DNA of 52,150 bases from a bacterium. GTDB lineage: Bacteria > Krumholzibacteriota > Krumholzibacteriia > G020349025. Of the stretch, positions 45,001-52,150 are shown piece after piece. A program made the position numbers. Positions within the stretch are counted from its first letter, which is position 1. Each line of letters starts with the position of its first letter. The stretch covers positions 1 through 52,150 of the forward strand of contig JANLSU010000123.1 of assembly GCA_031362565.1 (NCBI GenBank), in the 5' to 3' direction.

Positions 45001-48000
45001 CGCAAGGTCGGTTCACTCTTTGCGCCTCCGACCTACGCGCTGCACGCCAACAGCGCCATCTTGATCCCGGATGCAGTGGCCCAGCCGGAGTTGGCGGCCG
45101 AGGCCGCTGCCAAGCGCGCCCGCCAGCAGGCTAAGGATGTGGTGTTGCACGGCCCGCTCGCGGTCCTCGCTGCGCTCCACACTTATTTGCTCCTGGCGGG
45201 GACATTGTTTGTCGTGTGGCGCGGGAGCCGTGGCGGCGCCGGATTGACGCCGGAACTGTGGCTCGCGGCGTCGATCGTCGCCGCATGGATCGTTGTACAT
45301 GCGGTTTTTTGGGCCCAGCCGCGCTTCCGGTATCCCATCGAGATCCCAATGGCGGTGCTCGCCGCTGCCACGTTACGATCGCGCCATGGCGAACCTCGGA
45401 CCAAAACTGCGGGCTGAAAAATGGCTGCTGATCATCGTCGGCGTGGCGATCGCCGCGCGCGCGGCGGTAGTCGTTTGGCTCGCCGATACCGTGCCGTATA
45501 GCGACGGCGCCTACTATGAACTCGCGGCTCGCAAGCTCCTCGCCAACTGGCAGTTTTTCTTCGACCGCTCGCAAGTGGAGTCCTACGGCAAGCTCGGCTG
45601 GTGGCCGCCGTTGTACCCGGCATTCATTTCGTTCGTCTATCGCCTTGCCGGGGTCAATCACCGCGTCATTCCGTGGGCGCAAGTTCTGCTGGGCGCCCTC
45701 GTCTGCGTCTTCGTGCAACGCATCGGACGCCGCGCCGGTGGACCGGCAACCGGCAACATCGCGGCGGCGCTCGTGGCGCTCAACCCGACGTACATCTTCG
45801 CAACCAATCTCTTCGCGTCGGAAAACTTGTACGCCGCGTGGTTCGCGTGTGGCCTTTGGCTGGCGGGAAAGCCGTGGACTCGGCGGCGCATTCCGGTGGG
45901 TGCCGGCATTGCGTTCGGGTTGGGAGCGCTGACCCGCGCCGTTGGCGTCGGCGTGCCGTTCGTCATTGCCCTGGCGCGGTGGCGCGCATTCCCGTCGCGC
46001 CGGGCTTGGGCGCGGTCCGTGGGGTGGATGGTGGTCGCGAGCCTGCTCACCATCGCACCCTGGACGGTGCGCAATCTCGTCGTCGCCGGCAGCCCAGCGC
46101 TCGTCTGTTTCGGCGGCGGGCTCAATTTCTATTTCGGCCACAATGACGTGCAACTCGGGTATCGCGATCTTACCGACACGCCCATGTCGCACCTGACGAC
46201 TCAAGCCGCCATCGACCGCGAGGGTTACCGGCTGGGTCTGCAATGTTTAGCTGCGAACCCGTTCGGATTCGTGACCCGCGGCGCGCTCAAGGTGGGAGCG
46301 CTCTTCGGGTCGCCCGGCTACGCGCCGCACGACAACAGCGCCATCTTGCTGCCGGACGGCTGGCAGACCGACCCCGAAAAGGGCCGCATCGCCACCGATC
46401 TTCGCGCCCGCCAGCGCGCCAAGAATCACTGGCTCGACGGATTGTTTACGCCGCTCTCGGCGGCCTATTCGTATGTGCTGCTTCTTGGCGCGATTGTGGC
46501 GGTCGGGCGCGGCTGGCGCCGCATGCCGCCGGAACTACGTACGTGCGTTTGGCTGGTGGTCTACTGGATCGCGGCGCACGTCGTGTTTTGGGCTCAGCCG
46601 CGGTTTCGTTATCCTACGGAGATTCCACTCGCGCTGCTGACAGCGTTTGCGGTGACGCTGTTTCTGCCGCAGCGGCGAGGTGCAAAGCACTCGAGAACGG
46701 CGGCATAAGCAGATACGCGGCGATGCGACGGAGGGGAGTCGCACCGCCGCGCCGAACGCGCGCGGCCCGTGGCGAACACGGCGACCGCGGCCGGCTTCAC
46801 GTCAATGTGCGGCGACAACGCTTCCGTGCTCACAATGCGATACGGGCAAGGCCGCTCGCTTCTAACACCGTCGACCCTGACGCCATGACGGGGGTACACT
46901 CCAAGCACCGCTCGGCTCGCTTCCTTCCAACGCATGGAGTGGTCGGCGTTGCCCTATTCCGAGTCGAATACCCCGCACTGGGCGGCCCGATTGGGCGAGC
47001 TGGTGCACATTCTCCAGACCCCCGACACTGGCCCCGCCGGACACGAGGCGGCGCGAGCGGAGTCCTGGGTGCTCCTCAACTCCGCGATCCTCCGCCACTT
47101 GAGCGTTCGGGCCGGCGGCGCGGGCCTGGCCCACGAGGATCGGGAGGATCTGGCGGCTGAAAAATCGTTAGATCTGCTGCGGCGGGCCGAATCTGGGGCG
47201 TGGCGTGTCGAAGGGCGCGCGGCCGGCGAAATCGCCGCGTTCGTGGCCACGGTGGCCCGTCATGGGATCGTGGATCATCACCGGCGCTCGTCCCGCTGGG
47301 TGCAACCCGGGCCGGGTGGTATGGACGAAACGCCTCACAACGACCGCGTCCTGGCGCACGACCCGGGGTCGCCCCTGGCCCAAGTCGAGCGGCGCGATTT
47401 CGTGCAGGCGCTTTGTGACTGCGCCGAACACCTGCAGCCGCGGGCACGGCGCGCTTGGTTGTTCCGGGTTTTCTACGATCTGTCGAGCAAGGAGATCGCG
47501 GCGCATCCGGAGATCGATCTCAATCCGGCGCACGTCGACGTGCTGTTGCAGCGTTGTCGCGATGGGATTCGCGTTTGCATGCGCGCCAAGGGCTATGAGC
47601 CGCACGACATGCCGCCGGGCACTTTTGCGGCTCTGTGGAAGGCGTTCCGGATTCCGCAGGCGGCCGAGGTGAAGCGATGAGCGAGTTCGAGTCACAGGCA
47701 CGGCCGGGTCCCGTTCACTTGGACGAGGACCGGTGCATCGACCTGTTGCACGGTCTTCTCGAGACCCCCGAGGTCGAGGCGATCGCGTCGCATGTCGCGC
47801 AGTGCGTGACGTGCGAGGCGCTGTTGCGAGACTGCGCCGCGGAGCGCGAGCGCGTTCGGGCCCAGGCCGCGGTGCGGCGCTCGACGTTGGGCGGTGATGG
47901 CGTCGGCGCTTCGCCCGCGCCACGCGGCGCCGACATCCGCAAGATTCATGGGTCGGAGTGGCGCGTGTTGGTGCCGTGGGCGATTGCGGCTTCGATTCTC

Positions 48001-51000: not shown

Positions 51001-52150
51001 GAGATTCGCGCCGCGGGCCGCTGAGCTGGTGGCGCAGTTCCGCCGCCGTTTCCGCGACCGGTACACCCAGTGCGGCGATGAAATCACGCTGCGCCGACGG
51101 CCGTGGACCGCCGGCCGCAATGGCACCGGTGACGGCAAGTCCGATACGCGGCCATTCGATCTGCGCCAGGTCGTCGTCGATGACGAGGATGTCCAGGGCC
51201 TTGTCGTCCAGATGCTGCGTGCAGGCATTCACCAGGAGCTGCAATGCGTCTTCGAAGGGCCGGTCCGTAACGGCGTCGAATCGCAGGCACAAACAGGCAT
51301 CCTCGCAACCTGCCAGCACCGCGCCAAATTCACCGACGATGCGATCCACATCAGTCGCGTCGTCCCAGCGCGGCCAGGCGACAATGCGCTGTTCCTTGAC
51401 GGTGCCGAGCGCAATGGGCTCGAGCTTGGTGGTTGGGTCGGCGGCGGATGCCGCCAGATCGAAGGGCCACTTGGCAGCATGCACCGTGGTGCCGTTGTAA
51501 CGGCCGGTCACCGCGCGCCCATTCTTGATGTTCATCGGCTCACGCAGGAAGGCCTTGCCGCCGCGGAAATCGGACATGAGCGGCGTCGTGTACACGCAGT
51601 CCGTGAAGTAGTAATGCGTCACCTGGGTGTGGCGCGACCGGGACGGGTCGAGGATCGGCGATCCGCCATGAAACAAGTTGGCGGACCACACGAGCGCCTG
51701 CCCTTTTTTGACCTGCAGTTCCGTCCGCCGCAGCCCTTTGGACTTGGCAATCGATTCGATGAAGTCCTCGTAAAGAACATAGTGTTCGTAGGGATTACTT
51801 TGCTGGCTGGCGCTGATTCCCAAGTCGTGCATGTCGTAGAGCGGCAAGCGTTGGCTGCCCGGGTAGTAGTGCAACGGCCCGTTCGTGAGGTCGATGTCTT
51901 CGAGCGCCACCCACACGCCGCACATGAAGTGATGCGGGAAACAATGAAAGTGAATCGTGTCGCTGTGCGTCCGCTGCTGCGTGCCGAGCGGAAAATTGAG
52001 TGTTTGGAAAGGCACCGGCTGGCGGCGGTAGAGGAAATAGAGGAGATCCAGCACTTTGGGGTCGGAGGCGATCCGGCGCGAGTGGTCACTGAACTGCCAA
52101 CTGTCCTGAATCCGGCCTGGGCTGGAATACGCCCCGCCGCCGCCGTCGCG

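Follow-up and report, generated by a model that had tools for sequence, protein, structure and literature searches.

A candidate trans-envelope switch built from an exported TPR-CHAT protease, a membrane zinc anti-sigma factor and an ECF sigma factor

In the window (the whole stretch of 52,150 nucleotides that was analysed), three closely packed genes on the + strand encode an ECF sigma factor, a zinc anti-sigma factor and a TPR-CHAT protease. It is probable that the protease serves as a dedicated Arg-specific site-1 enzyme, whose predicted cut in the anti-sigma, followed by RseP-type cleavage, would free the sigma factor. Export of the protease, its intact active site, the conserved Arg site and the pairing of protease with anti-sigma are supported and hold up, and cleavage is what we infer.

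The switch is proposed to work as follows. The zinc domain of the membrane anti-sigma would keep the sigma inactive, as is familiar from the ZAS family. The exported TPR-CHAT protein would bind its own anti-sigma, with the W513 loop of the protease predicted to lie against the LPxPW loop of its partner. A trigger signal is probably sensed by the TPR array, by analogy with Csx29 and separase, and the protease would then cut after Arg146. The cut would shed the TPR ectodomain and leave a stub of 27 residues accessible to an RseP-type protease, so that the sigma is freed. The RseP-type step is modelled on DdvA, which is degraded by RseP when its ectodomain is missing (PMC11506125); two M50 (RseP-type) protease genes are found in the genome.

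The locus and its sigma factor

46934..47680, + strand: ECF-type sigma factor, divergent, 248 aa (alternative TTG start at 46949)
47677..48492, + strand: single-pass zinc anti-sigma, 271 aa, with zinc domain, membrane helix, linker and small TPR-like ectodomain
48502..51024, + strand: TPR-CHAT cysteine protease (clan CD, separase-like), 840 aa, exported as judged from sequence (Pfam CHAT 526-831, TPR_10/12; fold matches)

The anti-sigma ATG overlaps the sigma stop codon, and the anti-sigma ends with a stop at 48490-48492, after which the protease begins with a new signal peptide. The preliminary description had given the three genes in this form, with the HxxxCxxC motif, the membrane helix and the CHAT His/Cys motifs, all of which are present (the last as H674 and C733), and had rightly set the protease apart from the anti-sigma, unlike in DdvA. 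Its sigma start at 46949, a TTG nine bases after GGAG, is a plausible alternative to the start at 46934, from which the ORF is called here.

The sigma protein fits the ECF type, with regions 2 and 4 only and a length of about 200-250 aa. TIGR02937 matches it over positions 26-164 of 165 (E=7e-11), with 42.1 bits just under the cut-off of 42.9; the Pfam sigma regions match weakly, below their cut-offs, and the nearest Atlas clusters are sigma-70/ECF. Six further weak sigma matches (E about 1e-11 to 1e-13) were discarded as other ECFs, adjoined by neither an anti-sigma nor a CHAT partner. A search of the regions before 32 sigma genes found no promoter specific to the sigma and yielded no regulon. 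TCTAAC/GTTAGA alone stood out there, with 9 occurrences where 1.3 would be expected; it lies in both orientations, has no -35 element in common, and is probably a housekeeping -10 element. The neighbours of the locus are PMT_2 glycosyltransferases and PhyH, and the targets of the sigma might perhaps be neighbouring secreted proteins. No sign of a defence role was seen at the locus, where PADLOC gave no match among five proteins (the three switch genes and two neighbours). No CRISPR link was seen at the locus.

Nine CHAT genes are present in the genome. Five adjoin a sigma and a zinc anti-sigma gene (C104, C43, C66, C71 and C131), two adjoin a sigma and a membrane kinase gene (C93 and C14), and two have no ECF nearby (C85 and C130). 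The seven sigma-linked loci reported at first are thus recovered, with the same division between anti-sigma and kinase partners.

The protease and the linker arginine

48502..48624, + strand: lipoprotein-type signal peptide ending in LSA-C41 (sequence)
50005..50070, + strand: helical insertion with AxxWP loop (W513), predicted exosite for the anti-sigma (interface residues 502-523)
50521..50523, + strand: catalytic His674 (18/18 family members)
50698..50700, + strand: catalytic Cys733 (18/18 family members)
50809..50811, + strand: Asp770 (WxVxD), probable Arg-binding S1 residue (18/18; contacted by the anti-sigma linker in the predicted complex)

The CHAT domain matches PF12770 with E=2e-51 (175 bits against a cut-off of 24), and the His674/Cys733 dyad is intact; proteolytic activity is predicted. 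By fold the protease matches Csx29 best (Z 23.8, rmsd 8.7, 565 aligned), then separase (Z 23.7) and DdvA (Z 21.2, rmsd 4.5, 558 aligned). Aligned by sequence with solved structures, the CHAT region gave no relevant match, and a family profile search brought up only TPR proteins among the 60 matches listed. The segment LSA-C41 fits a lipobox, and the protease is likely exported, as a lipoprotein here and mostly by a signal-peptidase-I type signal in relatives. A hydrophobic N-terminus is found in 18/18 family proteases against 1/144 internal blocks, a count that rests on start codons chosen by eye; this segment and the His/Cys motifs had both been pointed out before. In the exosite, W513 and A510 are each kept in 17/18 family proteases, and the AxxWP motif occurs in 17/21 family proteases but in 8/80 acidobacterial CHAT proteins. 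Asp770 stands 37 residues after the Cys, where human separase has Asp 41 and Csx29 Lys 43 residues after it. Judged by this position, rather than by residue-level alignment, Asp770 appears equivalent to separase Asp2151/Asp2070. In separase, the conserved Asp binds the P1 Arg (PMC10317155).

47791..47814, + strand: HxxxCxxC zinc motif (H39, C43, C46; residues 39-46), read from sequence, in 143/150 homologues
47959..48033, + strand: membrane helix, residues 95-119 (hydropathy 1.77 from residue 97; helix in structure model)
48112..48114, + strand: Arg146, candidate P1 (VANR|DA), in a linker without secondary structure (conservation; coil in model)
48337..48351, + strand: LPxPW loop of the ectodomain, predicted docking surface (conservation; predicted interface)

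Residues 120-151 of the anti-sigma are coil in the structure model, and Arg146 lies in a variable part of it, 27 residues past the membrane helix. Nevertheless it is kept in 144/150 homologues (mean identity 34%; linker background 6.5%), and in 120 of these 144 the next residue is S, D, A or G. Arg stands at the site in 26/27 anti-sigma rows of close sigma loci, a count that leaves out L060, L062 and L064, whose anti-sigmas are truncated or differently built. The conserved linker Arg noted at the outset is therefore far above chance. Its placing just outside the membrane holds for the zinc anti-sigma family; in the kinases, by contrast, the Arg is about 140-170 residues out. The loop of the ectodomain, which lies within the predicted interface, is also well kept (P222 in 147/150 homologues, P224 in 130/150, W225 in 141/150). 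A fold search with the anti-sigma matched generic TPR structures, and no match reached E<=0.001. Seven partners found by eye carry L or M instead of Arg at the site. By eye, too, all seven adjoin WxVxS proteases, as do six Arg partners, nearly all of one clade, which is a hint only.

The predicted anti-sigma/protease complex scores 0.74, against 0.00 for the best of three controls; the mark used for this score is reached by 116/157 solved complexes and 2/215 mismatched pairs. At least 78% of contacts agree between runs, with partner pLDDT of at least 79. In this prediction the anti-sigma docks on the family-specific Trp loop of the protease, and linker residues 139-145 touch protease residues 769-771, including Asp770. 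Together with the conservation of Arg146, this contact supports, as a prediction, the earlier proposal that the Arg is a cleavage site. Solved structures of separase or Csx29 with their substrates may have shaped the predicted complex.

The confident interface is mostly the exosite (protease 502-523), and Arg146, His674 and Cys733 are not among its residues. This would also suit an anti-sigma that acts as a securin-like inhibitor or tether in the active site, signalling by binding and release, with other envelope or foreign proteins as the true substrates. Indeed, securin acts as a pseudosubstrate when it binds separase (PMC10317155), and the L- or M-site partners would fit as well. However, securin inhibits because it has no P1 Arg, and adding Arg makes it cleavable (PMC10317155), whereas here the Arg is near-invariant and followed by a small or acidic residue. 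We regard such an inhibitor as unlikely.

Gene linkage and Arg sites in other partners

In other genomes, 29 close sigma loci were examined with wider flanks: an anti-sigma gene stands at +1 of the sigma in 27/29 and a CHAT domain gene is found in 23/29, in tandem, divergent and convergent orders. The linkage is thus stronger than first claimed, and the initial caveat that many neighbours were matched through TPR parts only falls away. The named relatives belong to Eisenbacteria, Krumholzibacteriia and Acidobacteriota. The pairwise identities of sigma, anti-sigma and protease rise and fall together, most strongly for anti-sigma and protease (Spearman 0.65, 0/2000 permutations, 20 loci), a pattern that shared descent alone also gives. 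In the acidobacterial phylum, 37/61 sampled genomes carry CHAT genes, up to 14 each, and an ECF sigma is near the CHAT gene in 47/80 loci examined.

Arg sites are also found on other ectodomains. In a cluster of anti-sigmas with Ig-like ectodomains, an Arg is invariant (18/18) and is the best-kept column, and the DUF4384 ectodomains of the kinases have one in 31/31, 43-51 residues from the C-terminus. In a third ectodomain cluster, with 20 members, the site is R, L or M and no Arg column emerges. The only Peptidase_C14 gene of the genome adjoins ECF/kinase and ECF/membrane-partner pairs, and these partners carry RG. The literature search for DUF4384 returned eukaryotic papers only. The same Arg-site logic may be reused on unrelated ectodomains, including those of membrane Ser/Thr kinases beside ECF sigmas; a cut near the C-terminus of a kinase would not shed a domain but act as a switch on the kinase.

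The motif [LFVTIM]R[GS] occurs in 28/39 CHAT-adjacent partners against 18.0 expected by shuffling, and in 13/51 zinc-finger membrane proteins far from CHAT/C14 genes against 13.5 expected; in this larger test the motif was set after inspecting the data, the genomes are related and one partner (L235) is not an anti-sigma. An unbiased comparison of five genomes with a strict motif gave 4/8 near and 13/51 far from CHAT genes, which is not significant (p=0.21). Covariation between P1 and the S1 Asp was dropped as a test, as 5/5 non-Asp loci still carry the motif.

The RG dipeptide is common in GC-rich proteins, at a chance rate of 0.2-0.7 per ectodomain, and 6/30 kinase-type loci keep the Arg without a CHAT or C14 gene in the stretch examined (three more end at contig edges). 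Both facts would fit an Arg that is structural or binds a ligand or other partner, with the protease a co-regulated output of the sigma or cutting elsewhere. Against this, a single structural role is hard to expect across three unrelated ectodomains, the Arg sits in coil, the predicted complex places the linker on the 769-771 strand, and the orphan CHAT genes (C85 and C130) could serve orphan partners in trans. Moreover, one relative, L059, has lost the Arg where the protease gene is lost: no CHAT gene lies within the 14.5 kb examined of its 334-kb contig, and its zinc motif is also missing. This reading of the Arg has, in our judgement, little chance of being the explanation. It is conceivable, too, that the cut is constitutive maturation, as in self-cleaving FecR-type anti-sigmas, whose products stay associated (described in the DdvA discussion, PMC11506125), and that a later signal switches the joined fragments; the closeness of the kinase site to the C-terminus agrees with this. 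We hold it to be very improbable, because the protease carries a large TPR array, which points to allosteric control of the kind seen in Csx29 (PMC9729208), and in the model the ectodomain lies wholly beyond Arg146, without an evident link back to the stub.

Relation to known systems and significance

The switch as proposed resembles DdvA and Csx29-Csx30 in the way it works but is distinct from both. The DdvS-DdvA system of Myxococcus xanthus likewise combines an ECF sigma, a zinc anti-sigma domain, one membrane helix and a periplasmic TPR-CHAT part, the proposed linker site-1 protease, followed by RseP (PMC11506125). DdvA is one chain of 991 aa, reported only in Myxococcota and one Comamonas, with an unmapped cleavage site and an active site without the three-helix motif (PMC11506125). 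In the window, by contrast, the protease is encoded apart from the anti-sigma and predicted to be exported, the anti-sigma has a small ectodomain of its own, an invariant Arg marks the site, and no adjoining defence gene was seen among the five proteins compared with PADLOC. Helices 496-542 form the predicted docking site and may correspond to the three-helix motif. The label of a split DdvA in the preliminary description is thus apt for the way of working but not for descent, since the CHAT sequence does not match DdvA and the fold is no closer to it than to Csx29 or separase. A search among 8000 candidates for longer homologues, as a fused anti-sigma-CHAT form would be, found none, which is weak evidence against such a form, and an apparent fusion in L118 was rejected as a frameshift.

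In the Csx29-Csx30-CASP-sigma system of type III-E CRISPR, a separate TPR-CHAT protease also cleaves the anti-sigma of an ECF-type sigma. Csx29 is cytoplasmic, is activated by RNA through Cas7-11 and cleaves after M or L; at the position of separase Asp2151 it carries Lys670 (PMC10028731, PMC9729208). By contrast, the protease here is exported by its sequence, keeps the Asp and faces a membrane anti-sigma. HetF, which cleaves PatU3 at R117|S118 (PMC9457339), and separase (ExxR) are CHAT/C50 proteases that cut after Arg, but their substrates are cytoplasmic with no sigma factor involved, and the site here has L/V/I/T, not Glu, at P4.

DegS/RseA/RseP and related site-1/site-2 cascades resemble the switch in the two-step regulated intramembrane proteolysis of a single-pass anti-sigma that is predicted here, whereas in the switch each sigma/anti-sigma pair would come with its own gene for the site-1 enzyme, a clan CD cysteine protease. 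ECF54 also has a CHAT-TPR gene in its conserved neighbourhood, with proteolytic control proposed, but it is reported (PMC7826278 supplement, PMC8999054) as confined to Actinobacteria, has no anti-sigma and lies near subtilase and carboxypeptidase-regulatory genes. The sigma of the window does not answer to that description, given its anti-sigma at +1 and relatives outside Actinobacteria. In the supplement text, as distinct from the tables, of the ECF group survey (Casas-Pastor 2021), CHAT is named under ECF54 alone. SAVED-CHAT/PCaspase/PCc-sigma/PCk of Haliangium (10.1101/2023.06.23.546230) likewise clusters caspase-like proteases with a sigma and a Ser/Thr kinase; it is a defence cascade triggered by cyclic oligoadenylate that cleaves the sigma itself, with no membrane anti-sigma described in the part of that work available. 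No description of a three-gene exported-CHAT/anti-sigma/sigma switch was found in the literature searched.

The chances are about even that these loci represent a widespread, undescribed trans-envelope class in Eisenbacteria/Krumholzibacteria and Acidobacteriota. In such a class, exported clan CD proteases (CHAT, and one C14 caspase) would be private receptors and Arg-specific site-1 enzymes at once. A portable Arg-small site on TPR, Ig-like and DUF4384 ectodomains would let one protease chemistry switch either a zinc anti-sigma or an ECF-controlling membrane Ser/Thr kinase, and DdvA and the anti-sigma arm of Craspase would be fused or cytoplasmic special cases. If true, this would assign a role to signal-peptide-bearing TPR-CHAT proteins, a large class that is so far unexplained, and would mean many parallel private channels, seven of them in this genome. 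The open question from DdvA, whether the CHAT domain is the site-1 protease of the anti-sigma, becomes directly testable because enzyme and substrate come as two soluble pieces and the scissile bond is predicted. The findings also suggest protease-switched receptor kinases, and orthogonal protease/sigma pairs for synthetic biology.

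The gene trio and its copies in the genome

Three genes abut in the window and encode a sigma factor, an anti-sigma factor and a protease.

46934-47680, + strand: divergent ECF sigma factor, 248 aa (TIGR02937, E=7e-11, slightly short of the cut-off)
47677-48492, + strand: zinc anti-sigma factor, 271 aa, with HxxxCxxC at residues 39-46; its membrane helix (residues 95-119) contains a hydrophobic stretch
48502-51024, + strand: TPR-CHAT protease, 840 aa, with TPR repeats, a CHAT domain (E=2e-51), H674 and C733

The sigma factor falls under the Pfam cut-offs, and sigma-70/ECF are its closest Atlas clusters. 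In the predicted model of the anti-sigma, residues 120-151 form a coil and residues 152-270 a confident helical TPR-like domain. The hydrophobic N-terminus of the protease ends in LSA-C41, a lipobox-like sequence. In fold comparison, the protease model resembles Csx29 (Z 23.8), separase (Z 23.7) and DdvA (Z 21.2).

Two ArnT-like PMT_2 glycosyltransferase genes lie in tandem (43885-46708, +) directly upstream of the sigma gene on the same strand, and together with a PhyH gene they flank the locus. At 42640-43119 (+) there is a small secreted cysteine-rich protein without a Pfam match, which ends in a TWGxVKxLY tail; by a crude pattern, about 190 ORFs of this genome have such a tail or an FlgD-Ig tail.

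The genome has nine CHAT genes, five beside a sigma and a zinc anti-sigma and two beside a sigma and a membrane kinase, which bears out the seven loci of the preliminary description. The other two TPR-CHAT genes (G000:C85:131859-135047 and G000:C130:4634-7945 of this genome) have hydrophobic N-termini, no ECF gene nearby, and large secreted proteins with FlgD-Ig-type tails on their flanks. Their products could act in trans on orphan partners.

Linkage and conservation in other genomes

Within the phylum, 30 of 208 genomes, this one included, contain a match to the sigma at E<=1e-10. All 35 matches from other genomes were fetched; 29 strong loci come from 24 genomes, and six weak matches, with neither anti-sigma nor CHAT, were set apart. 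An anti-sigma is present in 27 of the 29 strong loci and the CHAT domain itself adjoins in 23, in tandem, divergent or convergent order; this linkage is stronger than first described. For four of the six CHAT-less loci, the contig is short or ends there. The fifth (L043:5390-7021, G098:C77) has a lone sigma without anti-sigma; the gene that directly follows it encodes a 1100-aa secreted protein with an FlgD-Ig tail and is possibly a direct sigma target. The sixth, L059 (L059:7359-8153, G173:C4), sits on a 334-kb contig; its anti-sigma lacks the zinc motif and the Arg that corresponds to Arg146, adjoins a PAS-type sensor gene and has no CHAT gene in 14.5 kb. L059 is a natural loss control. At three loci (L040, L051 and L055), the anti-sigmas keep the Arg and a CHAT neighbour and have lost the zinc ligands. 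In a crude pattern search that compares different genomes, a secreted gene with a FlgD-Ig or TWG-type tail lies within 1.5 kb at 10/29 loci; the rate among random blocks of this genome is 11.6%.

A protease-alignment scan of named genomes returned 80 loci, overlapping the sigma-match set, 41 of them with this sigma and anti-sigma. Their titles are mostly Eisenbacteria and Krumholzibacteriia. Three are from Acidobacteriota: L093 and L107 belong to an unpublished genome (G209), and L106 is independent and gives the same picture. What looks like an anti-sigma/protease fusion (L118:4978-8106) results from a frameshift in the gene for the anti-sigma. PADLOC gave no phage defence link for the three genes and two neighbours.

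Arg146 is present in 26 of 27 aligned anti-sigmas, an alignment that excludes L060, L062 and L064 (differently built or truncated). The anti-sigma profile collects 441 clusters (50% identity) at E<=1e-30. Among the best 150 representatives (34% mean identity, some of them seeds, taken without gene context), 144 have Arg146 and 145 the zinc cysteines, with 6.5% Arg in the remaining linker. Directly after the Arg comes S, D, A or G in 120/144, and L, V, I or T predominates at P4. It is improbable that this Arg is conserved for a structural role. In the protease, H674, C733, E630 and D770 are invariant among 18 family members. In anatomy, linkage and conservation, the module is real and well supported.

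The predicted complex and the proposed switch

For the predicted complex, in which protease 41-840 was paired with anti-sigma 118-271, the score was 0.74, and the best of the three controls gave 0.00; 116/157 solved complexes and 2/215 mismatched pairs reach the same mark. The runs share at least 78% of contacts, with partner pLDDT at least 79. The prediction supports binding of the anti-sigma to its protease. In the model, protease 502-523 receives anti-sigma 183-188 and 217-227, and the interface core is conserved (protease W513, 17/18; anti-sigma P222, 147/150, and W225, 141/150). An AxxWP loop characterises this protease family (17/21, versus 8/80 acidobacterial CHAT proteins). Linker 139-145, immediately N-terminal to Arg146, contacts protease 769-771 in the model, and Arg146 and the His/Cys dyad are absent from the confident contacts; likeness to solved separase/Csx29 substrate complexes may have helped the placement of the linker. 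That the anti-sigma instead inhibits or tethers the protease is an unlikely reading.

Export of the protease is suggested by a hydrophobic N-terminal stretch in 18/18 proteases versus 1/144 internal blocks, with start codons picked by eye. Four paralogues of this genome (on contigs C104, C43, C66 and C131) and two relatives have lipobox-like cysteines, and most other family members have what resembles an ordinary signal peptide.

Counted from the catalytic Cys, D770 is 37 residues downstream; the corresponding distances are 41 residues in human separase and 43 in Csx29. From this spacing and a WxVxD motif, D770 would be the equivalent of the separase Asp that binds the P1 Arg; sequence alignment of the CHAT region to solved structures gave no residue alignment for D770. 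That separase residue is Asp2151 (human Asp2070; PMC10317155), Csx29 has Lys670 in its place and cuts after non-Arg residues (PMC9729208), and HetF, a bacterial CHAT protease, cuts at R117|S118 (PMC9457339).

We infer cleavage after Arg146, TPR sensing and a site-2 step, which together make a probable mechanism. The exported protease would dock on its own anti-sigma, a signal would switch it on via the TPR array, the activated protease would cut after Arg146, and an RseP-type enzyme would then finish sigma release. The genome has two M50 genes, and completion of release by RseP has been shown for truncated DdvA (PMC11506125). A constitutive maturation cut at this site is very improbable.

DdvA and the Csx29-Csx30 arm work in a similar way, and the module is a member of neither; ECF54 lacks an anti-sigma, whereas this module has one. 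The ECF reclassification, in the text consulted (PMC7826278 supplement text, PMC8999054), mentions CHAT only under ECF54, and its supplement tables may list this context. Full-text searches of an open-licence library turned up no account of a split, exported module or of its Arg site.

Other membrane partners of CHAT proteases

A CHAT match at E<=1e-45 occurs in 37 of 61 genomes (one, G235, unpublished) of a Pyrinomonadaceae genome's phylum. Eighty of 169 matches were fetched, with high scores and long contigs favoured, and 47 of the 80 have an ECF sigma within the stretch. Their membrane partners bear differing ectodomains. The Arg is the sole invariant column of an Ig-like cluster (n=18) and is present in 3/3 of a small TPR cluster; a third cluster (n=20) has no Arg column at the site, the residue being R, L or M. 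Ten loci (L133, L135, L136, L138-L140, L143, L146, L149 and L185) encode anti-sigmas of Pyrinomonadaceae type, which have two zinc motifs and an ectodomain that combines Ig and TPR; R, L or M stands at the site, and the adjoining proteases have Ser/Ala at the Asp770 position; a changed protease specificity is possible there. CHAT proteins above 2100 aa (L131, L132, L134, L141, L145, L151 and L152) have no ECF gene within the stretch examined.

The motif [LFVTIM]R[GS] occurs in 28/39 CHAT-adjacent partners (18.0 expected by shuffling; reversed, 21 vs 17.2; Lys version, 6 vs 6.2) and in 13/51 zinc-finger membrane proteins far from CHAT/C14 genes (13.5 expected). The Fisher p=1.6e-5 for this difference is overstated because kin are non-independent and the motif was fixed after the loci had been inspected. 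In five genomes surveyed without selection (74 zinc-finger hits, 4 unreadable and 11 dropped for want of a helix or ectodomain), it was 4/8 near vs 13/51 far (p=0.21).

The kinase partners have a DUF4384-like ectodomain with an invariant Arg, mostly RG (31/31), 43-51 residues before the C-terminus in the two copies of this genome. A TPR-CHAT neighbour is found at 21 of 30 kinase-type loci, 14 via pieces within 1.5 kb and 7 via the CHAT domain after widening; three others stop at contig edges and six have none. An ECF + membrane kinase pair precedes the only Peptidase_C14 gene of this genome (782 aa, signal-like N-terminus, DUF4384; G000:C93:4873-12874, L153), and an ECF + membrane-partner pair is close by, with RG in both partners. 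The arrangement suggests that the module also has a caspase/metacaspase version.
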